This document shows, piece after piece, positions 6,339 to 29,656 of a DNA stretch of 64,000 bases. Where the stretch lies: the NCBI RefSeq assembly GCF_036507355.1, contig NZ_AP027877.1; one strand, given 5' to 3'. The number at the start of each line of letters is the position of its first letter. Position 1 is the first letter of the stretch. The translations under genes and the position numbers were made by a program. Source of the stretch: Escherichia coli (GTDB lineage Bacteria > Pseudomonadota > Gammaproteobacteria > Enterobacterales > Enterobacteriaceae). The notes under the pieces are model-generated. The model saw only the letters and a program-made list of their open reading frames with translations. It ran no database searches and had not been told where the DNA came from.

Positions 6339-6412
6339 GCGGGCGTAGTTCAATGGTAGAACGAGAGCTTCCCAAGCTCTATACGAGGGTTCGATTCCCT
6401 TCGCCCGCTCCA
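6339..6412 (+). tRNA. glyU: tRNA-Gly (anticodon CCC)
   Basis: 74-nt sequence GCGGGCGTAGTTCAATGGTAGAACGAGAGCTTCCCAAGCTCTATACGAGGGTTCGATTCCCTTCGCCCGCTCCA with cloverleaf and CCC anticodon. Confidence 0.97.
6390..6412 (+). repeat. attL core: 3' end of glyU (23 bp), direct repeat of 10585-10607
   Basis: TTCGATTCCCTTCGCCCGCTCCA occurs identically at 6390-6412 and 10585-10607. Confidence 0.85.
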
Positions 6413-6546: not shown

Positions 6547-8178
6547 ATGCTCAACTCAAAAACCTATCTTTATCAGCGCAATGGCGTCTTTTATATCCGC
6601 CTCAGGATGAAGTCCACAGATCGCCTGACCGTTTCACATCCTTCCCATAGCCGTTATAAAATAGCGTCAGTATCACTACGGACTAAGGATAGACGTACAG
6701 CTATGGCTTACTCACGGCAAATCAAGGCAGCACTTAGGGCAATCCATGCAGACAGACCCAACGCCTCCTATGAGGAAATGAGGGAACACCTGAGGGACAT
6801 CGCAGAGTGGGAGTTGTCTACAGGTCGTTCAGACCTCTTCGAGCCAGATATGAGAGATCTATACCGTGACCAGTATGGGGAAGTGGGAGAGAATCTTGTC
6901 CATGCTCTGGCAAGCGAGCCACTGACTATTGACCAGCATCGCTATATTAATGAGGCTCTTAATGTACTCAAGGCCTGCATGAAGCGCATTGAAGCGGGAG
7001 ATAGCCAGCCACTTATAGATTATATAGATGGATTTGATGCTGCTGCTGGGGCTAATGGCCAAGCCTCTGCAACTCTATCTGTTAGTGCTCCCCAAAAAAC
7101 AAGCATTACTGAAGGCAAACACTGCGTAACCGTTGCTTCTCTCTTTGAGCAGTACGAGCAGGAAAACGCCCAGAACTGGAAGCCAGCAACATTACGAGAA
7201 AACAAAGCTTCTCATGCTGCGTTAATCGAAGTTTTTGATTATCTGGGCCTCAATGCTGACGCCAATGTGTTAGCTCGTGCGGATATGCTTAGGGTTCGGG
7301 ATATCCTCCAGCAATTGCCGAAGAATCGTAAGCAGCGTTTCAAAGATGTTCCGTTGGTTGACCTGCTAGGTCGTGAGGATAAAACCGATTGTCTGGATAT
7401 TGTTACCATCAATAATAAATATCTCATTAAGATGGCGGCTGTTTTCAAGTGGGCCGTGCGTAATGACCTGATTAAAAAGAATATGACAGAAGGGCTAGAG
7501 CTTAAGGTTCCCCAGCGTAAAGCCTCTGAGGCGCGTAATGCTTTCTCTACGGAGCAGGTAGGACAACTACTGGCTGCCGCCCAAGTTTACTCACAGAGAC
7601 CTTCTGGTAAGCCGTATCATTATTATGTTACCGCCTTGGCTGCTATCACTGGGGCGAGACTCAATGAAATAGCCCAACTACAGGTCAAAGACGTCAGGAC
7701 CACTGAGGCGGGAACCGTTTATATTCATATCAATGAAGACGATAGTAGTCTACCCGGTAAGAGCATCAAGAACGCTCATAGTGACCGCTGTGTGCCTCTG
7801 GTCGATGGGGCCTATGGTTTTATATTGGCTGACTTTATGAGGTTGGTTGAGACCCGTAGAGGCGCTGATGGTGATGACGCTATGGTGTTCGATGGTCTTC
7901 GCCTCATGAAGAACGGTTACGGTGAGCAGGTGAGTAAATGGTTTAATCGGACGTTGTTGCCTAAAGTCCTCGCAGACCGTAGCGGCTTAGCGTTTCACTC
8001 GTTTAGACATACAGTTGCGACCCAGTTAAAACAACATGGGGTCGAGTTGGCGTATGCACAGGCGATCATGGGGCATAGTTCAGGGTCTATTACTTACGAC
8101 CGTTATGCTAAAGAGGTTGAGGTTGATAGACTGGTCAATGTGATGGCTGATGTTTATAAGGAGGTTGTGGCCCCTTAA
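6547..8178 (+). CDS. tyrosine-type integrase (543 aa, extended N-terminal region)
   Basis: C-terminal catalytic motifs ARLNEI (Arg), HSFRHTVAT (H-x-x-R), GHSSGSITYDRYAK (Tyr); first gene after the tRNA att core. Confidence 0.85.
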   Translation: MLNSKTYLYQRNGVFYIRLRMKSTDRLTVSHPSHSRYKIASVSLRTKDRRTAMAYSRQIKAALRAIHADRPNASYEEMREHLRDIAEWELSTGRSDLFEPDMRDLYRDQYGEVGENLVHALASEPLTIDQHRYINEALNVLKACMKRIEAGDSQPLIDYIDGFDAAAGANGQASATLSVSAPQKTSITEGKHCVTVASLFEQYEQENAQNWKPATLRENKASHAALIEVFDYLGLNADANVLARADMLRVRDILQQLPKNRKQRFKDVPLVDLLGREDKTDCLDIVTINNKYLIKMAAVFKWAVRNDLIKKNMTEGLELKVPQRKASEARNAFSTEQVGQLLAAAQVYSQRPSGKPYHYYVTALAAITGARLNEIAQLQVKDVRTTEAGTVYIHINEDDSSLPGKSIKNAHSDRCVPLVDGAYGFILADFMRLVETRRGADGDDAMVFDGLRLMKNGYGEQVSKWFNRTLLPKVLADRSGLAFHSFRHTVATQLKQHGVELAYAQAIMGHSSGSITYDRYAKEVEVDRLVNVMADVYKEVVAP

Positions 8179-10318: not shown

Positions 10319-10584
10319 AAATTTCCCACAAAAATCTCAGTGCCTATCTAACAGTAATAACCCTGCAACATTCCCCCGTATACCTCCAGAAGTTATCCAG
10401 AAGCCGAAGTAGGTATCCTGTCATGTATTTGAATCATCAAAGTTGTTCGTTCTATTCCTCTTTAGGGAATATTACAGCCCTACAGCCTTGACCAGAGATC
10501 ACTTGATGTGTAACCATAACTGTAACCAAAAGGATTCATCATCCTTTAAGAAACAATTGGTTAGTGAGTGATTGTCTTCGATAC

Positions 10585-10607
10585 TTCGATTCCCTTCGCC
10601 CGCTCCA
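10585..10607 (+). repeat. attR of the 4.2-kb element (also proximal att of the next islet)
   Basis: 23-bp copy of the glyU 3' end; flanking sequence diverges from the tRNA. Confidence 0.85.
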
Positions 10608-10771: not shown

Positions 10772-11998
10772 ATGAAGCTGACTGCTCGTCAGGTTGAAAC
10801 TGCGAAACCCAAAGAGAAGCCCTACAAACTGGCCGATGGTGGTGGGCTTTACCTGCTGGTTAATCCCAACGGTAAAAGATACTGGCGTCTCAAATACCGT
10901 TCGTTAGGTAAAGAGAAGCTGCTCGCTATTGGCGTTTATCCCGATGTTTCTTTAGCTGAGGCCCGAAGTAAGCGTGAGGATGCTAAAAGAACATTAGCGG
11001 CTGGCAACGATCCCTCTCTTGAACGAAAAATTGAGAAACTTAGTCGTCAACAAGACGCTGAAAACTCGTTTGAGGCTATCACACGGGAGTGGTATCAGCG
11101 TCGCTATGACCGCTGGTCTGTCTCCTACCGCGAAGAAATGCTGAGAACCTTTGAGAAAGATGTATTTCCTTATATCGGTCACAGGCCAATCAAAGATATC
11201 AAGCCGATGGAGTTGCTTGCAGTTCTTTCAAAGATAGAAGCACGAGGGGCAACAGAGAAAGTCCGCAAGGTTCGTCAGCGTTGTGGAGAGGTCTGGAAGT
11301 ATGCCGTTGTGACTGGGAGGGCCGAGTACAATCCAGCACCTGATCTAGCCAGCGCCGTGAGTCCTCATGAGAAAGAGCACTATGCTTTTTTAACCCAGGA
11401 TGAATTGCCTGAGTTTCTTCGGACTCTGAACGCCTATGCCGGTAGTGTGCTTGTTAAGATTGCGATGCAATTGCTCATTTTAACAGGAGTAAGGCCAGGG
11501 GAGTTGAGGCAAGCGGAGTGGCAGGAGTTTGATTTTGAGAAAAAGGTTTGGAATGTACCAGCGGAACGTATGAAAATGCGCCGCCCTCATCTTGTTCCAT
11601 TATCAAGCCAGGCAATTGACCTGCTTAATCAACTTAAACCCATAACGGGAGCAGGAGCGTTATTATTCCCAGGACGTAATAATCCTAAGAAACCGATGAG
11701 CGATATGGCATTGACTGTGTTGGTCAGGCGTATCGGCTATGCCGGGCGCGTTACAGGGCATGGATTCCGCCACACGATGAGTACCATTTTGCATGAGCAG
11801 GGATTCAACTCGGCCTGGATTGAGTTACAGCTGGCTCACGTCGATAAGAACTCAATTCGTGGGACGTATAACCATGCTCAATATTTGGAAGGTCGGCGGG
11901 AGATGATGCAGTGGTATGGAGATTTCATCGGTCAAGCAGGCAAATCCGGATCATCGCTAGCTTATGCAGCTATTAGCTTGACTGCTGAATTAGAGTGA
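10772..11998 (+). CDS. P4-type tyrosine integrase
   Basis: 408-aa ORF; N-terminus MKLTARQVETAKPKEKPYKLADGGGLYLLVNPNGKRYWRLKY typical of P4-family integrases; HGFRHT and Y-containing C-terminal box; sits 165 bp after the tRNA-derived repeat. Confidence 0.9.
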   Translation: MKLTARQVETAKPKEKPYKLADGGGLYLLVNPNGKRYWRLKYRSLGKEKLLAIGVYPDVSLAEARSKREDAKRTLAAGNDPSLERKIEKLSRQQDAENSFEAITREWYQRRYDRWSVSYREEMLRTFEKDVFPYIGHRPIKDIKPMELLAVLSKIEARGATEKVRKVRQRCGEVWKYAVVTGRAEYNPAPDLASAVSPHEKEHYAFLTQDELPEFLRTLNAYAGSVLVKIAMQLLILTGVRPGELRQAEWQEFDFEKKVWNVPAERMKMRRPHLVPLSSQAIDLLNQLKPITGAGALLFPGRNNPKKPMSDMALTVLVRRIGYAGRVTGHGFRHTMSTILHEQGFNSAWIELQLAHVDKNSIRGTYNHAQYLEGRREMMQWYGDFIGQAGKSGSSLAYAAISLTAELE

Positions 11999-12008
11999 GA
12001 AGGGGCAA

Positions 12009-12056
12009 GTTGAGCCTCTTCGCTGAGAAGAGGCTCAACGTGAACCTATTTTTTTG
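12009..12056 (+). terminator. intrinsic terminator after integrase
   Basis: GTTGAGCCTCTTC-GCTG-AGAAGAGGCTCAAC hairpin followed by a T7 run. Confidence 0.7.
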
Positions 12057-12153
12057 GGAGTTAATACTTTTTGCAATTTTTTTTTTCGTGCCGTTGGATG
12101 TAAAGATCTGTGGGGGTTAGGGAAGAAAATCATGCTATGTTAGTCTTTGAGGA

Positions 12154-13131
12154 GTGAGTCAAAATGTTATAACTTTTTCAAAGAGGCGTTACATCGTGAA
12201 AGTCGTTTTTAATGTTAATGGTAAAAAAGTTCCGCTCAAATCTCTGCAATATATAAGTAAAGCAAATCAACTCGAAGTTATGCGGAATTGGTTTTTTGAG
12301 AATTTTGAAGATCCCGCGAACTCTTGCCCGTATGAATCCCGTGAAGGCGGGTATGCTTACATTTATGGGGGCCCATACGAAGCAAGTGAAGAGTTGCAAG
12401 CGATGTTTGAAGGACACGTGAAATTTGATTATATCCAAGAATTAGTCAATGAATTACAAGAACAGTGCTATGAATGGTCTGGTAATTCAAATAATATTAA
12501 TGATTGGTACGATGAAGACTTGTATGATGCTGTTACATCTTCTGAACATCCTTTTTCTAAGTTCGTTGAAAGCATTGATGGAATAAAATTGCTGTCTAAA
12601 GGCGAATTTAAAGATAAACAAAAAGATCATCTGCTTAGCATCCTATATATTAATGTCATTACAGCCCTGGAAACACTTTATGTTGAGTTATTTATTAACT
12701 CTATAGATAAAAACGACTCATATCTTGCTGACTTTATAGAAAAAGGTAAGACGGAATTTAAGGTAAATAAAGGAATATTGGCTTTGCCATTCAAAGGAGA
12801 AACTATTGAAAACATGAGGGCGCAATTAATTAAGGTAATTAAAGAGCATTTGATTAGTGCAAGTTGGCATAGTACAAACAAAGTTGTAGGACGTTATAAA
12901 GCTACATTTGATATAAAAGTACATAAAGAGTGGCCAATAGATGTGATCGAAATAGCAACTCAAAAGCGTAATCATTTAGTCCATCGTGGCGGGAAAGATA
13001 AAGAAGGTAATTCGGTAGTGATTACTGAACAGGATTTAGAAATGTTGCTGGATCACGCACAATCTCTTGGAGAAAAATTGTTTGATAGCCTTGAGGTGGC
13101 ATTACAGAAAAAAGATGAGAATGAATTTTGA
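12154..13131 (+). CDS. hypothetical protein with C-terminal HEPN-like R-x4-H motif (putative abortive-infection protein)
   Basis: 325-aa ORF; C-terminal KRNHLVHRGG fits the HEPN R-x(4-6)-H signature; AT-rich gene inside an integrase islet. Confidence 0.5.
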   Translation: MSQNVITFSKRRYIVKVVFNVNGKKVPLKSLQYISKANQLEVMRNWFFENFEDPANSCPYESREGGYAYIYGGPYEASEELQAMFEGHVKFDYIQELVNELQEQCYEWSGNSNNINDWYDEDLYDAVTSSEHPFSKFVESIDGIKLLSKGEFKDKQKDHLLSILYINVITALETLYVELFINSIDKNDSYLADFIEKGKTEFKVNKGILALPFKGETIENMRAQLIKVIKEHLISASWHSTNKVVGRYKATFDIKVHKEWPIDVIEIATQKRNHLVHRGGKDKEGNSVVITEQDLEMLLDHAQSLGEKLFDSLEVALQKKDENEF

Positions 13132-13182
13132 GTCTCGGGGTAGGTTGATAGTGCTACCGATAACGAGCAAGCAAATGATACT

Positions 13183-13202
13183 CGGCAGGCAGTGCCTGCC
13201 GG
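13183..13202. terminator. bidirectional hairpin between convergent genes
   Basis: CCGGCAGGCA-G-TGCCTGCCGG perfect inverted repeat between the 13131 and 13207 stop codons. Confidence 0.55.
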
Positions 13203-13206
13203 AGGA

Positions 13207-14910
13207 TTACTTTTTACTTCCAAATTGAATGCCGAGAAGTTTATTCTCTGCTTTATCGCCACGTAGAGTAAGAACAATTTTTGATTTCAGTTCTAACATT
13301 TCGATTTCAGATAAAGTTGTTTCCATAGCATTAAAGTTTTCAGTGTTTAAAGATGCTATATATTGCTTTCCGCTTCGTTTTAATGACTGATTGACAAATG
13401 AGAACCATCTTGCGCGAACACCTGGATCTATATCAGCAAAAAGACGGTTATCATGCCATAGCATATCCATGGCATGGTTTTCACCACATGTAAATACTAA
13501 CCAGTCAAAGCATAATATCCTAGCATCATTGATCCCATCCGAATCATCACCCTCGATTTGGATGCTTAGATCATAACGAATTTTGTTGTCACCAGTATTA
13601 ACATCCAAAACTATTCCTGCTGGTACCCTTGGGTACATTATTTCTGCGAGCTCAGCAAAAATTTTATCGTATTCTGAAAGAGGATTTGTAGAAGCATAGT
13701 TTACCGCTAATCTGTCTTGTTCAACTTTTCGTTCTCTTAGATTTTGAGCTTTCTGTTGAAGGTTAATAGAAAAATTTAAATAATCATGTAACCTTTCTTT
13801 TTCTTCTTTAAATTCAGCTAGTTGTCTAGCTATGACTGCGTATTCATCAAATGCTTTCTTGCCTTGCAGGGATTCCAAATATGAATCACGTAATGCTGAA
13901 ATATCCTTAATGTCAATTTTAAGAGATTCAATTTCTAACAAAAGTTTTACTTTATCATTTTCAAGTCTTTTCTTTCTGTTAAAAGATAATGATTTGTGAA
14001 AATTTTCAACTGACTCAAAATGGGCCAATGTTTCTGGCTTGAAAATCTCTTGTAAGCCATTGTACAGTTCAAGAAGCTCTTCTCTTGAAATGTCAGGGTG
14101 TTCTAATAAAGTTTTTTCTATATTATTTACTTTAAATTCAGCTATATTTTTGTTTTTTTCAACTTCTCGTAATTTTATAGTTAAACTGTTTGTTTCATTC
14201 TCAATAGCTCTGTATTGCTCGTGAACTTGAAATGCATTCAGTTCATCCTGCAGTCTTGGGATCTCTCTTTCTAGCCACTCATAGCGTACTTTAGGTTGAG
14301 AGCCTGCTCTAAACATGTCTTTTAGAATATCATCGTCTTGCCAATTTTTTAGCGATTGACTTACTTTATCCAGCTCTTGCTTATTATTTCTTTTAGATAA
14401 TATTAAATTATGATCTATACCGAGAAGAAATGCGGTACGAAGCAATGCTTCAAAGTCTTGCTCCTTTTTTGTCCTAGTTGGACTGATGCAGTCATCTCTG
14501 GTATATCGCGAAAAACGCTTAAATAAAGATCTGAATGATAAATACGGAATGTTATTCTCAAGATTAAATATTCCTATTTTATCTAATAAATCTTTAAATG
14601 CTTTTAAAGATATTGTTTTGTCATTTAATAATAATTTTTTTCCATTGCCCGTTCTAGATATTAAGTACTCAACTCCATTATGAGAAAAAAGTAAAGAGAA
14701 CCACCAATCTGGAACTGCTGAAGTTAATTTTTTATCAGCATTAGCTCCTAAACAATGTTGAATGAGACCGAGAATAAGTGTCTTACCGACTCCGTTACTA
14801 CTGCCTTCTTTTTCTTTAGAGCTATCACCAATGATCAACGTTAGTCCTGTATCATTGAAATGCACTGGATGAAAAGTTGGCTGATCGCAAGTTAAGCGAA
14901 TTAACTTCAT
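13207..14910 (-). CDS. SMC/ABC-type P-loop ATPase with long coiled-coil region (putative anti-phage ATPase)
   Basis: 567-aa ORF; Walker A GSSNGVGKT near the N-terminus; long K/E-rich heptad-like middle; start codon abuts the stop of the upstream 101-aa gene. Confidence 0.65.
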   Translation of the reverse strand: MKLIRLTCDQPTFHPVHFNDTGLTLIIGDSSKEKEGSSNGVGKTLILGLIQHCLGANADKKLTSAVPDWWFSLLFSHNGVEYLISRTGNGKKLLLNDKTISLKAFKDLLDKIGIFNLENNIPYLSFRSLFKRFSRYTRDDCISPTRTKKEQDFEALLRTAFLLGIDHNLILSKRNNKQELDKVSQSLKNWQDDDILKDMFRAGSQPKVRYEWLEREIPRLQDELNAFQVHEQYRAIENETNSLTIKLREVEKNKNIAEFKVNNIEKTLLEHPDISREELLELYNGLQEIFKPETLAHFESVENFHKSLSFNRKKRLENDKVKLLLEIESLKIDIKDISALRDSYLESLQGKKAFDEYAVIARQLAEFKEEKERLHDYLNFSINLQQKAQNLRERKVEQDRLAVNYASTNPLSEYDKIFAELAEIMYPRVPAGIVLDVNTGDNKIRYDLSIQIEGDDSDGINDARILCFDWLVFTCGENHAMDMLWHDNRLFADIDPGVRARWFSFVNQSLKRSGKQYIASLNTENFNAMETTLSEIEMLELKSKIVLTLRGDKAENKLLGIQFGSKK

Positions 14911-15216
14911 TTAACTTTCCTTATTTTTTAATTTGTCATAATTGCAACAGATTGGCATTATTCTGTTTTCATTATCTAGCGTTATTTGTTTGATGCAAAA
15001 AAGAATGTCTACGGCAAGTATAAATTGTGTAAAAGAGGGCGTGATTATCGTTGATTTATTTTTCCGCTCTATTTTTGTCCATAGTTCTTCTATGGATACC
15101 GGTCCATCAATTAACGAACGGATGTATCCTGCAATCGCAATTAGGGAGTTACTAAACCTAACATGCTTATGTGGCAGAAGCATTGCTTGGATGTTCATAA
15201 GCATCACATGTCTCAA
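14911..15216 (-). CDS. small hypothetical protein coupled to the ATPase
   Basis: 101-aa ORF whose stop (14911-14913) is immediately followed by the ATPase ATG (14908-14910), suggesting translational coupling. Confidence 0.5.
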   Translation of the reverse strand: MRHVMLMNIQAMLLPHKHVRFSNSLIAIAGYIRSLIDGPVSIEELWTKIERKNKSTIITPSFTQFILAVDILFCIKQITLDNENRIMPICCNYDKLKNKES

Positions 15217-15390
15217 AATATTTAGCTAAAATTAACTCTGCAGCAAATCGATAACTCGCGACCGCACTTGTGGGAACTTGCGGGGGAAGGAGTTTATCTA
15301 TCATCCAAGTATATCTTAAATCTGCATAATTGTGGTTATCTTCAGTTATCGCCAATTTACTTTTTGCATAAGTATCTCTAACTTCTTGAG

Positions 15391-16173
15391 CTATAGTTTG
15401 TTCAAGACCACAAGACCATTATCAACAGAATCTAAAAATTCATTTATCAAATATAGTTGATAGCTAAAAGATTCCAGCCTGCTTTTTATTGGTTTTGTAA
15501 TACCATTTATTTTTATTTTATCTTCGAAGTCCGGGGCTGTTTCACTTAAAAAATTCATGGGTGAAGAAGATTTTTGTGCTAAAAAAGTCAATACTTCACC
15601 AACAGCTCGAGTATCTGTAAAGTCTAAATTAACCTCAGGAATGAAACCTACAATATCTTGCTTTTCACCCTCGGATAATGACATAAACTTTTGAAGGAGC
15701 TCCATCCCACCCATTGCACCTGCGTGATTAAGACTTTTACTGATTGCAAGTGTATTTAATGAAAGTCCAACAGGTGCTGGAATACCCTTGAAATAATCAT
15801 TCATTACAAAAGTATATTTTGATACTTTCCCCCATTTGGCGACTAATTTATCAAAGTCGCCAATCGATTTATTAACAGCTTCTAGCTCTTTGGTTTGATT
15901 TGAAGGTTTAGGTCCATAAACTTGGAAGTAATGAGCCTCATGAGCAATCCACCCATCATTCCCGCCATCTCCCCAGTTTCCCCAAGGGGAAACAGCTTGA
16001 AAGCCAGGAGTCGCGTATTGCATAACCTTCGAAAAAAGCGCCTGAAAACTGTCTCCCATACATTCATGTACTTTTAACCGAAAGAACTGTCTGTAGAGGT
16101 AATCTTGCTGTGTCGAACTCATTTTCCTCTCATCCATGATGAACACTTTTGATGATAATATCCTCTCATTCAT
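15391..16173 (-). CDS. hypothetical protein (260 aa), first gene of the ATPase operon, candidate effector
   Basis: ORF with WGNWGDGGNDGWIAHEAHYF segment; no confident family assignment. Confidence 0.5.
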   Translation of the reverse strand: MNERILSSKVFIMDERKMSSTQQDYLYRQFFRLKVHECMGDSFQALFSKVMQYATPGFQAVSPWGNWGDGGNDGWIAHEAHYFQVYGPKPSNQTKELEAVNKSIGDFDKLVAKWGKVSKYTFVMNDYFKGIPAPVGLSLNTLAISKSLNHAGAMGGMELLQKFMSLSEGEKQDIVGFIPEVNLDFTDTRAVGEVLTFLAQKSSSPMNFLSETAPDFEDKIKINGITKPIKSRLESFSYQLYLINEFLDSVDNGLVVLNKL

Positions 16174-16332
16174 TGTTGTAAACCTATGATTAGCAAAATT
16201 GGAGATGCTTTCACTTTAGAGTTGGTATCTAAAGGTTATAAATTATCAAAACAGGTTGTATAGATATCAAATTGAATACGATTTGACATATATGTTAATC
16301 TGATTAGTATCAGAGAAAAACAGGAGTCCTTA

Positions 16333-23812: not shown

Positions 23813-24790
23813 TCACTCTAATGCTTTTTGAGCAGCAAGTTCAAGTTCACTTTTTCCATGAAGTGCCAAAGACATATGGCATTCCGCTAGAAGGCAATAA
23901 CATTCTGTTTTTAGCGTCTGTATATCACTTTTATTTTGTAATCCATCAAATATAGTCATGGCCCTGTAAATGCTTTCAGGGGTGAACTCGTAAAGTTCTT
24001 TCTTTCCGGCTAACATTTCATCTGATAAATAATGATTCTTATATCCTTGGTCCTGCTTAGCTAATCTTACAGATCGTTCTGGTTTATGTACCGTTTGAAG
24101 GATATTATCTATAATAAATTGTGATGTATTATGTAGTTCATCAACAGGGAGATGATTACTGGCGATGAGGAAAAGGTTTTTAGCGTCGATCAACTCAATG
24201 TATAAAGTGTTCACTGCATTATTCTGGTTTATTCTTCCTGTAACGAAATAATCTGGCTTGAATCTGCTCAAGAATGAATTTTGAGATATGTGGTCATTAC
24301 AAAAATTTGTCGCAGCCATCGGATAGGTATAGAGACCATCGATTTTTTTATTTGAAATGATTTGTACTAATTCCTGATTAAGTATTAATGGATCCAGTGT
24401 ATTCAATGAAGTGGTGAAAGGGAATATAGCTATGGAATAGTCTGAAGTATTATCTTCATTAATTTTAGTTTTGAAAACCTGCCCGCTGAAACGATAACCT
24501 TTCCGGTAGATTGTTTCTATGCAGCGATCATAGCCAATTTTTTCAAAAATGCAGCGCAAAGAATAGATACATCTTGTCAGGGACTCGTCACTAACAATAA
24601 TATTTTTCCATACTGATTCGATGATCATATCTTTCAGTACAACATGACCAGCGGATTCAAGTAATACTATTAATACACCTAACTCTTTCGGTGGAATATA
24701 AACTTGCTCATTTCCTTGAGTAAGAATTCCATCTTCCGTGAGCGTTAATCCCTCAAGAAAATGATATGAGAATTTATTTTCTAAGTCCAT
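23813..24790 (-). pseudogene. ygeH: ygeH-like HilA/ToxR-type regulator (ETT2), 3'-truncated by the IS3-family element
   Basis: 325 aa with N-terminal winged-helix region; the reading frame stops on the TGA that is the first triplet of the IS terminus; K-12 YgeH is about 458 aa (recall). Confidence 0.65.
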
Positions 24791-25123
24791 TAGTTAACCT
24801 CTATGAAAAAATTGGTTTCTTGCATCCTGCATAAGCAATAGAAATTATGGCTATTCATATTTATATGTCATTAACGCTACAGGAGTTTACATTCGACATA
24901 TCTATGGTTGTGTTCACTAATTTATCTTAGGAATTCAGTGATGTAATCTGAAATAGCCTTATTCAATTTTGATAAAGTAAAATGCTCTCTAAAGCATTGA
25001 AAAATAATGATTTATTGTATGCTCTTAACTGTTTTAAGATGCTGATTTAAGAAAAGATAAGAGGTGCTGGTTATAGTGGTTAATGCACTATAACCAGCAA
25101 TTTTAACCAAATGATTGTAATGC

Positions 25124-25615
25124 TTAGTTATTATCTTCTGAATTATCGGTTAAGAGTTCGACATATGCCTGCGCTTTACTCTTAACACTATCATCCTCAC
25201 AATTGTTAATAATATGAAAGAAACATTGCATTGCGTTATCGATATTTTTAGCCCCAATTTGACATTGACCCATACGATAAATAACTGAATAGTCATCATA
25301 TGGCGAGTAATTATAACTTAGCTTGTAAAGGTCATATGCTTGTTGATATTTCTTTTTTGACTGACATACTGATGCAAAACCTTTTAGATATTCATGATTT
25401 TCGAACGCATAAATGCACAATAATTTATAATAAATTTCTGCCTCCGTTATATTACCCTTTTCATGGTAGTCGAATGCATATGCATATATTCTATCAAGGA
25501 TATCAGGAGTCAAACCATGTAGTAATGCCAGATTTTCTCCTTTCGATAATGCGTGTTTTAGTTGATTTGCCCATTCATCACTATTATTGAATATTTCAAT
25601 TGTTTCTGTGTCCAT
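25124..25615 (-). CDS. ygeG: TPR-containing type III secretion chaperone-like protein YgeG
   Basis: 163-aa acidic TPR protein, SicA/class II chaperone-like; ETT2 position. Confidence 0.7.
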   Translation of the reverse strand: MDTETIEIFNNSDEWANQLKHALSKGENLALLHGLTPDILDRIYAYAFDYHEKGNITEAEIYYKLLCIYAFENHEYLKGFASVCQSKKKYQQAYDLYKLSYNYSPYDDYSVIYRMGQCQIGAKNIDNAMQCFFHIINNCEDDSVKSKAQAYVELLTDNSEDNN

Positions 25616-25861
25616 AATATTCCTCTGTGATGTGTCTCGTGATGCTAAATTATTATTGATTGACTCATTAATATTTCTACATTTATCTTTTTTAAATTAT
25701 GAGTTTTAAGCTTGCATTGCTTATGAGTATATTTCTTCATTATTAGTAAAATTACTGTCCACTACAAACTAATTACATTATTAGTTATTTTGATAATATT
25801 CACCTTATTAGTAATCTTAATTACGACATTCCATAAATGCCTTAATGTGCATGACCATGAT

Positions 25862-26266
25862 TCATATTATCAATTTCCATTTTTCGATCAAAATTAAAAA
25901 GGGGATTTTTGCGAAGGGGCGAATGTCGTTTGTTTTTTTTTCTTTATTATGTCTGGTGATGAGGGGGGATAGAACGTCGGTGCATATAGTAGAGAATTTA
26001 TCCAGGTCTAAATTATTCTCTATTTTGGTCAGTTTTATGAGTTCATTTGTAGCCATACTCATTAAATCATCTGTTATCGGAAATTTATATATGCTCATAG
26101 CAGATAATATTGCTTGCTGAATTATTTCTTCAGAAAAATCCGCTATCTTTATTGACAAATCATGTATTTGATATTTTCCTCCAAGAGATTCTTGTTCAAT
26201 ATAATTTAAACCAGACCTCATAGTAATTTTAACTGGATTAACGAATTTTTCTTCATTTTTCTTCAT
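25862..26266 (-). CDS. ETT2-associated hypothetical protein (ygeF-like)
   Basis: 134-aa AT-rich ORF in the ygeF position relative to ygeG; no motif support. Confidence 0.35.
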   Translation of the reverse strand: MKKNEEKFVNPVKITMRSGLNYIEQESLGGKYQIHDLSIKIADFSEEIIQQAILSAMSIYKFPITDDLMSMATNELIKLTKIENNLDLDKFSTICTDVLSPLITRHNKEKKTNDIRPFAKIPFLILIEKWKLII

Positions 26267-26759
26267 TTTTCTTATTTTTGTTCTCCTGATCAGGAACTAA
26301 TGGTTGCAGTGGTAGGCTATTATTAATATTTCGTGGCTTCATTTTACATTTCTCTCATTTGATTAGAGCAAAATCCGAACTCGCAGCTTCTGATAATGTC
26401 AAATATCACCTTTTCTCATACTTTATTCTATCAAAAATCGCTCATTTTTACTTTTTTTACCATAATGTTACTTTGTAGCATCGGCAATTTACATAACTTA
26501 CACGTTGTTTTTTATATCCTGAAAAAACAGATAGATAGTGTGCGCACTCGAAATGATATTGGTAACATAAATAGCTTTATTCGTGATAAACATCTCAAAA
26601 GATTTCCTTTATTATATTCGAAATTCATTTGATCAAGGTTATCACCTTATGGAGACGTTACGTAGAATGACTATATTTGTTATCGGCACATTAGGGGTAT
26701 TAATTTTAGTATTGATGGAAGGTGATTATTGAACAGTAACATCGAGTCACGGTAAAAAT

Positions 26760-27197
26760 GTGAGGTATATAATGGATATTGAGTTTTCGCAGATTCATGA
26801 AATGGTCTATATGCATGATATTGTAAATTCGGACTCGAAAAAGAAACCAAGGATTCCGTTAAAAAAATTCCTTAATGCTGAGAAGGTTCTCACGCAAACA
26901 ACATCATGGGCATTAAATTCAAGATATGTGAATGTTAATTCTGTTAATAATGCCAACGTAAAGAGTAAAGTTAAAAACAGTTATATCTCACGATCTGTCA
27001 ATGATGAGTTTAGTTTAACAGATGATGAAATCAATTCTTTTAAAGAAACGTTAGTCCTTTCCTCTATTGATTCACTGAGTAAACTGGTTCTTAATAATCC
27101 TCTTTCTGTATTGTTTACTTCGACTGTACGAAGGAATAATAATCGAGCTAAGATGAATGTAGAGTTCGACTCATGGATTTGCACCAGATGTTGTTGA
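26760..27197 (+). CDS. yqeK: hypothetical protein YqeK-like
   Basis: 145-aa ORF; size, orientation and position match K-12 yqeK. Confidence 0.45.
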
Positions 27198-27345
27198 TAC
27201 ATGATATTTTACATTGCAAGGGGATGTCTGAAATGAAAGATGTTGATCAAAACTTTGATGCTTTAGACTGCCATATACTGCAAGCATATTTAATTTTATT
27301 GTTTTATGATTAACGAGGTTCCATCTTTTTGTTATCTATTTTAGT

Positions 27346-27840
27346 TTACCTTGCACAATGCATTATTGCTCTGTTACCAATACTCAAAATAAAAGCATGC
27401 TTACCTTGCTTTAGTATATTATAGCTTACACTTTTTTCTGGAAAGACATAAAAATCAGGAATAAGTTCTGCAAGTCTATCATCATCGACTTGATCCATAA
27501 TCTCAAACTTATTAACTTTCTTTGATGTTAAATGGGCTGTGTCATAGTTTTCAACCCATGTGTATTCAATATTTCGCCGTATTGATTTACTTTCTCTGTT
27601 ACCTTGTTGCCAGGTTCCACTCAACGCAACAGTTCCTGTTTTATTTTTTTGGTTATACATAAAGTCGATAGTAAGATTTGCTCGCCCCTGGTCATTAAAA
27701 ATTACCCAATTTGCAGTGCATGTCTCATTATATATCATTTTTTCTGCAGTGTAAGAATAGACAGTGAAGAGAATAAACCCACTGATAAAAACTAAAATAA
27801 ATAATAAGTTTTTTTTATAATCAATCACGATTAACCTCAC
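27346..27840 (-). CDS. yqeJ: hypothetical membrane-anchored protein YqeJ
   Basis: 164-aa ORF with N-terminal TM helix; overlaps the end of yqeI, suggesting an operon. Confidence 0.55.
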   Translation of the reverse strand: MRLIVIDYKKNLLFILVFISGFILFTVYSYTAEKMIYNETCTANWVIFNDQGRANLTIDFMYNQKNKTGTVALSGTWQQGNRESKSIRRNIEYTWVENYDTAHLTSKKVNKFEIMDQVDDDRLAELIPDFYVFPEKSVSYNILKQGKHAFILSIGNRAIMHCAR

Positions 27841-28630
27841 GGTAAGACAGGGTTAAACAGCCTGCCACTTCATGTTGGTTATAGTTTTTATTGCATGCCA
27901 TAACAATCATCCCCGGTGAGGATTTTGCAAGAGGGAAGTATAACCACGGATATTTTTTACAGTTAATCCCCGAATCCAATATCCGTGTTTTATATTTATC
28001 GAACTCTTTCAACCCATCAATTGTATCTTCTGTTACATTAAAATGGCAGCCATTAATTTCCGCAACAATCTTGTAATCCTTGAAAAATGGCTTCGGTTGA
28101 TTATTATTCCATAGCCAATATGCAAAATATGCGCCTATGACAAATGCGCTCAACATAATTAGATGACTTTTTATATGTTTGAGGATTTTGTTATTGAAAT
28201 TCTTTGCGCCACCAATGCTCTCTTTGTATCCCGCATTAACTTTTATGGCCGGTGGGGTATTGTGTGTATGTGCGTCTGTTGACGAGTTTATTACATGATT
28301 TTGTATGTTAATGTCATTATGGATCTTGAATCCTCTTCTCGGCACGGTTGCAATAAGTGAGTGGGTAGTATCACCAACAGCGCGAAATCCGCGTCTGATA
28401 ATGGATATGTTCTGATATAACGTGTTAGTTGGCACACGCATACCTTCTTCTTCCCAGACTCTGGTGAAAAAATCTTGTTGTGCAACCACATCAGGAAAAG
28501 CTTCAAGTAGAAGGGATAAACAACGACTGGCTGGCGTTGTCAGAACGACGTTAAGATCGGCGTTATGTACCGATATTAATTTTCGGTGCTCAGGCCAGAA
28601 CTCGATATTATCGTTAATAATCCAGTACAT
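27821..28630 (-). CDS. yqeI: ToxR-like winged-helix transcriptional regulator YqeI
   Basis: 269 aa; N-terminal OmpR/ToxR-type DNA-binding region followed by a TM segment (LIMLSAFVIGAYFAYWLW). Confidence 0.65.
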   Translation of the reverse strand: MYWIINDNIEFWPEHRKLISVHNADLNVVLTTPASRCLSLLLEAFPDVVAQQDFFTRVWEEEGMRVPTNTLYQNISIIRRGFRAVGDTTHSLIATVPRRGFKIHNDINIQNHVINSSTDAHTHNTPPAIKVNAGYKESIGGAKNFNNKILKHIKSHLIMLSAFVIGAYFAYWLWNNNQPKPFFKDYKIVAEINGCHFNVTEDTIDGLKEFDKYKTRILDSGINCKKYPWLYFPLAKSSPGMIVMACNKNYNQHEVAGCLTLSYREVNRD

Positions 28631-28963
28631 ACGTCAATAAACACTAAATCAATCGAAATGGAAATCACATAGTTTGCTAAGTATATTGGTATTTACGGCA
28701 TAAATATATATTAATTTTATATTTATCATGATGATTGAAATGAGGCTTTAATGGCGCAACGTAAAACTTTATATAAATTAACATGGTTAACATTTATGCC
28801 ACTATTGTTGATAAATTCATATTTCGTAATGCTTCTGAATTTTTCGTGTGATGGTTTTAAATACTATGTTGTTTACTCTTGGGGTTACTGCTTATTTATA
28901 AAATACGGGCATTCCAATAGATGCCCGTATAAGCAGAGTATGATTCTGGCAGATCGTTGAGTA

Positions 28964-29656
28964 TTAATGTTGGACCGAATGTGAACGAATAAATAACTCG
29001 TTTATTTTACCACCCATTCTCTTTTCGATTCGTTGCTTGTACGCGTAGATGCTACGGATATCCATATCCAGAACTTCAGTAATCTGATATGGGTTATAAC
29101 CAGAAACCATATACCCCATTATGGTGAATTCCATCTGAGTTAATGTGTTACCTCTGGTAAATGATAAATAACGACCAATAAATAGTTGTCTGATCTTTTC
29201 ATTGGCAACATCAAGACCATCATCATTATATATGACAGCAGATATTGCAGAGTTGTGCTTTCGCCAGTAGTTAGCTAACGATTGCATATTGCGGTCGCTG
29301 ACTAAAACAATCCCCATGTCAGTACTTGCAAGATAGTCAATCCAGTCTTTTTCAAGGAATAGACGTAAAAAACTTACTGAAAAATCGACAAAAATATATC
29401 CGCTTAATCTCGCATTGTGGTTTTTTGTTAAGATACCTTCCACCACACCACGATTAAAATATGAACTTTCTTCGGGCCACATACAAAAACACGAGTTTGC
29501 GCAATACTGAAAACGCGGTGACTCTTCTGGCATTATTTGGCAATGCATTGAGCAACTATTGCATGTAAGACTTTTATAACGACTACAAAGCCCCATGTTA
29601 AGAACCTCCCTATCCGTATATAATTGCATAATTTCATTGGTTATTGATGATGTCAA
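28964..29656 (-). CDS. yqeH: LuxR-family (GerE-type HTH) regulator YqeH
   Basis: 230 aa with C-terminal HTH (LTQMEFTIMGYMVSGYNPYQITEVLDMDIRSIYAYKQRI). Confidence 0.6.
   Translation of the reverse strand: MTSSITNEIMQLYTDREVLNMGLCSRYKSLTCNSCSMHCQIMPEESPRFQYCANSCFCMWPEESSYFNRGVVEGILTKNHNARLSGYIFVDFSVSFLRLFLEKDWIDYLASTDMGIVLVSDRNMQSLANYWRKHNSAISAVIYNDDGLDVANEKIRQLFIGRYLSFTRGNTLTQMEFTIMGYMVSGYNPYQITEVLDMDIRSIYAYKQRIEKRMGGKINELFIRSHSVQH

Follow-up and report, generated by a model that had tools for sequence, protein, structure and literature searches.

Results

The Escherichia coli DNA analyzed here is a chromosomal stretch of 64,000 nucleotides (contig NZ_AP027877.1; hereafter the window), and this report concerns a three-gene operon on its minus strand. 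The operon encodes a truncated LmuA-like effector, a LmuC-like middle component and a LmuB-like sensor ATPase, which we read as an ABC-three-component (ABC-3C) system of the Lamassu superfamily. An earlier reading of the letters alone (the sequence-only reading) had placed three open reading frames (ORFs) here, and the list of ORFs for 9-21 kb contains all of them on the minus strand: 16173-15391 (260 aa), 15216-14911 (101 aa, TTG start) and 14910-13207 (567 aa). The last stands as described; the first is not an intact gene, and the second is likely 90 aa long. The block at 12-16 kb has a GC content of 33-37%, the rest of the window being about 50%, and a 567-aa ORF in DNA of such composition is not a chance ORF. 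Homologues number in the hundreds for each of the three products. The Lamassu/ABC-three-component-like architecture proposed by the sequence-only reading holds, with MC6 in the middle gene, CTD10 in the intact form of the first gene, and a Rad50/LmuB-like ATPase with a coiled-coil insert.

The sensor ATPase gene (13207-14910, minus strand) encodes a 567-aa protein of the DUF2326/YydD type, as identified with Pfam, PADLOC and a motif alignment. Its C-terminus matches DUF2326, its RefSeq relatives are named 'DUF2326 domain-containing protein' and its JGI name is 'YydD (DUF2326 family)'. The Walker A motif GSSNGVGKT, the coiled coil and the C-terminal domain that had been noted earlier are all present. 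Two half-heads, one N-terminal and one C-terminal, enclose an antiparallel coiled coil (about residues 167-425) that is broken at its apex at 270-292. The Walker A and Walker B halves of this Rad50/SMC-type ABC ATPase are separated by a coiled-coil insert, as is characteristic of ABC-3C systems. In a family alignment of 34 sequences (52-86% identity to the query), the Walker A motif (SSNGVGKT in the window) is invariant as N39-G-x-G-K-T. The C-terminal half contains a signature-like SDGIN at 457-461, a D-loop FADID and a Walker B motif LWHD487-N488, of which W485-H486-D487-N488 is invariant and which lacks the catalytic glutamate. The asparagine lies outside the Q/S/T/E list given in the literature for variant Walker B motifs, and is likewise without a carboxylate. 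N522 occupies the position expected for the H-loop histidine in the alignment. Since asparagine replaces the Walker B glutamate and also stands at the expected H-loop histidine, the ATPase probably acts as an ATP-binding switch and not as a motor. No CxxC zinc hook is found in the coiled coil of the 34 sequences, and the apex keeps conserved P272, D273, F290, H297, F304 and H305. The predicted fold appears nearest solved LmuB and Rad50, and is as close to Rad50 as to LmuB. The PADLOC model PDC-M68B matches the ATPase end to end (7.7e-73, residues 3-563 on model 2-581 of 581); NCBIfam gave only a spurious TrlF match (E 0.007, 15 bits versus a cutoff of 350).

The middle gene (14911-15183, minus strand) matches Pfam MC6 at 4.1e-16 and MC7 at 1.1e-5. 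The MC6 match starts at residue 14 of the 101-aa ORF, and the RefSeq relative, 'ABC-three component system middle component 6', is 273 nt long. The start is most likely ATG 15183, as in annotated relatives, giving a product of 90 aa. A middle component of the MC1-MC8 families thus lies between the effector and the ATPase. As had been noticed from the sequence, a TAA/ATG junction joins it to the ATPase gene at 14913-14908, the stop TAA (14913-14911) abutting the ATPase ATG (14910-14908). PADLOC has no model for the middle component, and NCBIfam gave no match for the effector or the middle-component gene.

The first gene is a frameshifted 315-aa gene, which the sequence-only reading missed in describing a 260-aa unknown protein; the string WGNWGDGGNDGW...HEAHYF that it quoted is present in the ORF. 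In E. coli relatives the effector gene annotated by RefSeq is 948 nt long, and its 315-aa product is called 'ABC-three component system protein'. When the window was aligned with two E. coli genomes (99.7% and 98.7% identical), the sole indel in the effector gene was an 8-bp tandem duplication at 15411-15418, reading TGGTCTTG TGGTCTTG on the coding strand. The duplication shifts the frame after residue 237, and a stop appears at 15393-15391. Removal of the 8 bp in silico lets the ORF run to a TAA at 15169-15167 and regain the family C-terminus KYFETCDAYEHP. The out-of-frame rest of the gene lies at 15167-15410 on the minus strand; its shifted-frame translation, ...EQTIAQEVRDTYAKSKLAITEDNHNYADLRYTWMIDKLL...AKYFETCDAYEHPSNASAT followed by a stop, is identical to the C-terminus of intact 315-aa proteins, and part of it appears as a 62-aa ORF at 15355-15167. 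The conserved start is ATG 16122, which is preceded by a GAGAGG Shine-Dalgarno sequence, and the homologues all start at MSSTQQ... or its equivalent. The truncated gene therefore occupies 15391-16122 (minus strand, 243 aa), and the 260-aa protein is the 5' three-quarters of the 315-aa gene with a 17-codon upstream extension. In intact alleles the start of the MC6 gene overlaps the effector stop by 17 nt, a coupling that is lost in the window.

The frameshift deletes the last 78 residues of the C-terminal domain CTD10. The intact effector (315 aa, E. coli NZ_OZ197100) matches CTD10 in Pfam at 1.4e-9, with residues 173-307 on model positions 2-134 of 134. The window copy matches positions 2-63 only, with an E-value of 0.063, and so does not have a complete domain. 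The lost segment includes the most conserved block of the family, KYFETCDAYEHP, with invariant R267, W270, F300, E301, C303, D304, Y306 and P309. An effector ending in one of the ABC-3C C-terminal domains (CTD1-12) is thus found in the intact allele, and PF20275 is present in all listed homologues. The intact effector, used as a query, retrieved 189 proteins; almost all are 313-325 aa long, and PF20275 is their only precomputed domain.

The N-terminal ~165 aa of the effector are highly conserved, yet have no Pfam family. An invariant motif, GDGGNDG(W), is followed by Q67, K85 and N108, and in a wider set (25-42% identity to the first sequence of the alignment) the invariant residues are G51, D52, D56, G57, Q67, P71, K85 and N108. 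An AlphaFold2 model of the effector (pLDDT 82) has the order alpha-alpha-beta-beta-beta-alpha-beta, which corresponds to the PD-(D/E)xK fold and includes its alpha-beta-beta-beta-alpha-beta core. By topology, D52 and D56 lie at the start of strand 2 and Q67-V-Y69 lies in strand 3, the canonical place of a (D/E/Q)-x-K motif; D56 would then correspond to FokI D450, and Q67/Y69 to FokI D467/K469. According to this model the N-terminal domain is a restriction-endonuclease fold with a non-canonical site, in agreement with the earlier choice of the first gene as candidate effector, and the predicted activity is likely that of a nuclease.

The sequence-only reading had tied its proposal to co-occurrence of the three genes in other genomes, and they are found together widely. 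The effector-MC6-ATPase order, with genes overlapping or abutting, is conserved in unrelated genomes, including Geobacter metallireducens, a Halomonas conjugative element, Candidatus Thiodiazotropha (whose annotation merely omits the middle gene) and Enterobacter. A pattern-based scan of one genome per species gave 25 loci from Gamma-, Beta- and Alphaproteobacteria, Desulfobacterota and Chlorobiaceae. Twenty-one of these were testable, having a complete ATPase and enough upstream DNA. MC6 is directly upstream of the ATPase in all 21, and the effector is full in 16, truncated in one and absent in four. A megablast search of window positions 12000-16300 against 5,426 complete E. coli genomes matched the locus in six, at 95-99.7% identity. 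Members of the Enterobacter cloacae complex very commonly carry the DUF2326, MC6 and CTD10 branch; in the assembly collection, 2544 indexed blocks contain one Enterobacter ATPase sequence (P0122) that is 98% identical to that of the window.

These results bear on whether the ATPase is a housekeeping SMC-, RecN- or SbcC-type repair protein or an ABC transporter subunit, an assignment that the sequence-only reading had set against its own proposal and that is consistent with a fold as near Rad50 as LmuB. The assignment is not borne out. The ATPase occurs in only six of the 5,426 complete E. coli genomes, on a low-GC, integrase-borne island at tRNA-Gly; its constant partner is MC6, usually joined by a CTD10 effector and not by an Mre11/SbcD nuclease; and the ATPase lacks the catalytic glutamate and has no adjacent transporter partner. 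A housekeeping role is effectively refuted by the sporadic island distribution and the MC6/CTD10 partners.

More distant DUF2326 ATPases (23-33% identity) are found on 46 plasmids, where the effector-MC6-ATPase order is kept, and one Paracoccus effector retains a GD-KK-SDG...QCYAP motif. The Vibrio alginolyticus plasmid NZ_CP135970 encodes a 338-aa 'ABC-three component system protein' (L042, 1780-2796), with MC6 and a DUF2326 ATPase downstream. The N-terminal domain of this protein is without the GD..NDG...QVY motif and its tail is CTD10-like (...AYFFEECDIG), which suggests effectors swapped onto the same adaptor domain, a modularity to be expected of effectors in such systems; this effector may correspond to PADLOC PDC-M68A. 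In Halomonas sp. H10-9-1 the operon (L005, 6001-8922) lies between traC and traU of an integrative and conjugative element (ICE), beside an MvaT-like gene, as cargo inside the transfer operon. The four effector-less loci of the scan belong to Desulfovibrio metagenome-assembled genomes (MAGs; L027, L028, L030 and L039), and their flanks are housekeeping, e.g. a thymidylate kinase-like gene and an HD-domain protein. These MC6 and ATPase pairs may be an effector-less two-gene variant, like the short-Lamassu clade of Haudiquet et al.

A phage-borne origin of the locus was considered and rejected; a search of 50,697 phage genomes gave no match, and only two viral contigs were found. The same scarcity in phages is compatible with a main role in competition between mobile elements or in maintenance of the island or plasmid (plasmid restriction or addiction) instead of phage defense. 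The locus is always on mobile elements, namely tRNA islands, the Halomonas ICE with its traC-traU region and, for the distant relatives, the 46 plasmids, and the Lamassu system DdmABC was first found as a plasmid-restriction module (10.1101/2025.03.14.643221). Phage defense is compatible with such a role, however, as characterized Lamassu systems do both, and we consider it unlikely that competition or maintenance is the main role in place of defense.

Broken copies of the locus recur among relatives. Insertion sequences disrupt two of the six related E. coli loci: IS903B lies within the ATPase gene of one (L013, NZ_LR890349) and ISSen4 within the effector gene of the other (L014, NZ_CM176349). 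Counting the window, three of seven E. coli copies are broken. Further truncated or out-of-frame alleles are in the same 90% cluster, in a listing that is not a fair sample, and Enterobacter has other out-of-frame alleles (P0243, P0248 and P0250). A Legionellaceae MAG (L026, 2698-3740) has another independently degraded copy; only the final ~107 codons of the effector gene survive there, and the position upstream is taken by a fragment of an integrase. The exact 243-aa product of the window is WP_338388096.1, 'hypothetical protein [Escherichia coli]', from one contig, versus at least 98 contigs for the intact 315-aa form; the index of encoding contigs recorded none for the exact truncated protein. 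A sequencing artefact and a phase-variation tract were considered as sources of the 8-bp duplication and rejected. The site is neither a homopolymer nor a simple repeat, and RefSeq contains the same 243-aa product; the duplication is most likely a real one-off mutation.

The window locus is most likely an inactivated remnant in which the MC6 and ATPase ORFs are intact. This conclusion is drawn because the most conserved part of CTD10 is lost, because the suppressors of DdmABC toxicity that map to the effector all lie in its C-terminal domain and are for the most part nonsense or frameshift changes (PMC11707656), and because relatives carry independent breaks. Alternatively, the locus could still function here, either through activity kept by the 243-aa effector or through the MC6 and ATPase pair working alone. 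Both of those ORFs are intact in the window, the four Desulfovibrio MAGs carry MC6 and the ATPase without an adjacent effector, and Haudiquet et al. describe a short-Lamassu clade in which the effector domain was lost. However, the segment lost in the window includes the most conserved block of the family. In the solved systems the C-terminal domain serves both sequestration and activation, and DdmA toxicity is abolished by truncations of this domain (PMC11707656). The truncated allele is also confined to a single contig, and translational coupling to MC6 is gone. It is very unlikely that the copy in the window still functions.

The operon lies in the second of two tandem islands at tRNA-Gly(ccc) (6339-6412), parted by a near-perfect (23/25) copy of the tRNA 3' end at 10583-10607, an att repeat. 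The first island is ~4.2 kb and carries a 543-aa tyrosine recombinase (6547-8178) with unknowns of 187 aa and 157 aa. The second begins with a P4-type integrase (10772-11998), followed by a HEPN gene, the ABC-3C operon and arsRDABC; in E. coli NZ_OZ197100 this second island directly abuts the tRNA. The Enterobacter module has the same integrase and HEPN neighbor, and adjoins proBA, with nickel/cobalt cargo in place of ars.

The HEPN gene (12196-13131, plus strand, 311 aa; longest ORF from 12154) is convergent with the ATPase gene. It matches HEPN_RES_NTD1 in Pfam at 7e-5 and has a C-terminal KRNHLVHRGG (Rx4H), and its homologues carry PF18870 and PF18735 (RiboL-PSP HEPN). No PADLOC or NCBIfam model matched it. 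In E. coli and Enterobacter the gene accompanies the integrase and the operon; in distant loci it does not. A place in the system as a fourth component was considered and rejected, since the operons of Geobacter, Halomonas, Thiodiazotropha and the plasmid relatives have no such gene beside them. The HEPN gene is probably a separate, single-gene candidate for a HEPN RNase defense or toxin function.

Two sigma-70-like promoter matches from a consensus scan, both on the minus strand, lie upstream of the effector gene, in a region (16155-16270) that is divergent from arsR. The first (16270-16242) reads TTGATA-17-GATAAT and the second (16182-16155) TTTACA-16-TATTAT. The second would put the transcription start between ATG 16173, upstream, and ATG 16122, downstream. 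Promoter matches in this region are no more numerous than in shuffled sequence, and the two are no more than suggestive as candidate operon promoters. A G+C-rich hairpin (CGGCAGGCACTGCCTGCCG) at 13183-13201 (minus strand), found by a terminator scan and in the sequence, begins 6 nt past the ATPase stop, and is likely the operon terminator, common to the convergent HEPN gene.

Elsewhere in the window, a low-GC block at 23813-29656 (31-36%) is what remains of an ETT2 type III secretion island. A SicA-like chaperone and an EcpR-like regulator are encoded in it, as is a YgeH/HilA-like regulator that is truncated (325 aa versus a model of 458 positions).

Discussion

The ABC-3C class of systems was reportedly predicted in 2020 by Krishnan et al. 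The results presented here indicate, with a probability of roughly 80%, that the locus is a Lamassu-superfamily ABC-3C operon carried as cargo of a tRNA-Gly(ccc) island, that it uses a Lamassu-like mechanism, and that the local copy is inactivated by a frameshift. The observations behind this conclusion are the family and fold assignments, the synteny, the mobile-island context and the frameshift itself. The suggestion of the sequence-only reading that the operon is an undescribed variant did not hold up: the Pfam families, the RefSeq names beginning 'ABC-three component system' in six E. coli genomes and the PADLOC candidate PDC-M68B already exist. The system belongs to a class that is catalogued, annotated and computationally defined as defense-type. 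Its discovery value is therefore little, with the domains in Pfam, the proteins named in RefSeq, and structures and a mechanism available for related Lamassu systems.

Recent reviews and structural papers treat DdmABC, ABC-3C and Lamassu LmuACB as one superfamily. Lamassu LmuACB has been equated with ABC-3C, with classes CTD1-12 and MC1-8 (10.1101/2025.03.14.643221; PMC10586767), and the newer DefenseFinder models for Lamassu (2025) were built from ABC-3C seeds. In the Salmonella and Vibrio cholerae Lamassu systems, two folded LmuB protomers, together with LmuC, keep the C-terminal oligomerization domain of a single LmuA sequestered. LmuA is set free in response to DNA ends or phage replication structures; it then assembles into a tetramer, which creates a functional nuclease site and causes death of the infected cell. 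The Walker B motif of LmuB is without the catalytic glutamate, and hydrolysis is slowed (10.1101/2025.03.14.643221). Short LmuB proteins are ~600 aa with a Walker B of the form hhhhD[Q/S/T/E]; the zinc hook is optional (0, 1 or 2 copies), and V. cholerae LmuB has none.

Every architectural element of the operon is shared with the solved Lamassu systems, including the glutamate-less Walker B (here D-N), and for this reason the same mechanism is assigned by analogy. An ATPase dimer, together with the middle component, would sequester the C-terminal domain of one effector monomer and so keep the monomer inactive, a stoichiometry taken from the solved complexes. Binding of foreign DNA structures, such as DNA ends or replication intermediates, by the ATPase would be the trigger for release of the effector. 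The released effector would oligomerize through its C-terminal domain, so that an active nuclease is assembled, and this nuclease would degrade DNA and abort the infection.

Several results weigh against this interpretation. Searches of PDB sequences with the effector profile, the ATPase sequence and profile, MC6 and a broader N-domain profile gave no meaningful match to solved LmuA, LmuB or LmuC. The PADLOC LmuB model hits only residues 38-98 of the ATPase, the Walker A region (E 1.5e-4), the LmuA model gave an E-value of only 0.005, and in PADLOC the ATPase has a candidate entry of its own (PDC-M68). No experimental data were found in the literature for any DUF2326/MC6/CTD10 member; a literature search found no paper mentioning PDC-M68, and searches for DUF2326/YydD returned nothing functional. 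The loss of function through the frameshift is, moreover, one that we infer from sequence.

The effector site is a further point against. The canonical lysine is absent, as the residue at Q67+2 is Tyr, Phe or His, and never Lys, in every member examined. No Pfam nuclease family matched, and a Pfam scan of 27 diverse N-domains gave a single marginal Mrr_cat hit (8e-3). With a lysine-less beta-3 motif, nuclease activity is not assured. The N-domain could instead be a restriction-endonuclease fold without catalytic activity that serves in DNA binding, or another kind of hydrolase. This alternative fits the family-wide replacement of the (D/E)xK lysine and the lack of a Pfam nuclease match, as well as an hhalign comparison of the effector family with a FokI cleavage-domain sequence, in which only 14 irrelevant columns aligned. 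On the other side stand the topology of the model and the invariant K85 on the next helix, which may supply the missing lysine. We regard an effector other than a nuclease as doubtful, and a nuclease with a non-canonical site as the likely form.

It is less probable still that the DUF2326-MC6-CTD10 branch represents a mechanistically distinct type of Lamassu, with an altered sensor (no Walker B glutamate, no zinc hook and Asn at the expected H-loop histidine), a non-canonical effector site (D52/D56 and Q67-x-Tyr, the lysine coming from the next helix) and a trigger or substrate other than that of the Cap4-type systems. On this reading, the repeated independent disruptions in Enterobacterales (the 8-bp duplication, IS903B, ISSen4 and other truncated alleles) could reflect a high cost of autoimmunity. 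The residual interest of the locus lies in this sub-branch and in its lysine-less putative nuclease site. PADLOC v2 does not recognize the DUF2326/YydD-MC6-CTD10 sub-branch as Lamassu, which leaves a gap in defense-system annotation. The window also illustrates how, when raw ORFs are scanned, a pseudogene with a frameshift can be taken for a novel protein, here of 260 aa.

Comparison with known systems places the operon as follows. Rad50-Mre11 and SbcCD resemble the operon in the predicted fold of the ATPase, whereas the locus described here has no Mre11/SbcD phosphoesterase partner, no zinc hook, a far shorter coiled coil and no catalytic glutamate, and is mobile and sporadic. The PD-(D/E)xK domains of the FokI/Mrr type have a lysine two residues past the position where the effector has Gln followed by Tyr, Phe or His, and there is no match at the level of sequence. 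As for the PADLOC candidate PDC-M68, the ATPase matches PDC-M68B over its full length, whereas the match of the intact effector to PDC-M68A is confined to the C-terminal domain (residues 182-308, E 1.1e-3), and the N-terminal domain differs. Type II or 'short' Lamassu (V. cholerae DdmABC; Salmonella enterica LmuACB, PDB 9hqu/9hqx and 9uxl) has the solved mechanism, and differs in its families. The solved LmuB is DUF3732, whereas the ATPase here is DUF2326; DdmA and DdmB of V. cholerae are CTD7 and MC3 (PMC11707656), in place of CTD10 and MC6. The Walker B of short Lamassu is D-[Q/S/T/E], in contrast to D-N, and its nuclease is Cap4/DUF4297 with a QxK beta-3 motif, in contrast to an effector that is not Cap4/DUF4297 and has QxY. 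The closest correspondence is with ABC-3C. All three components are detected by the Pfam models of that family, in the canonical effector-middle component-ATPase order and with no difference at the family level, the window copy being set apart by the frameshift that truncates its CTD10.

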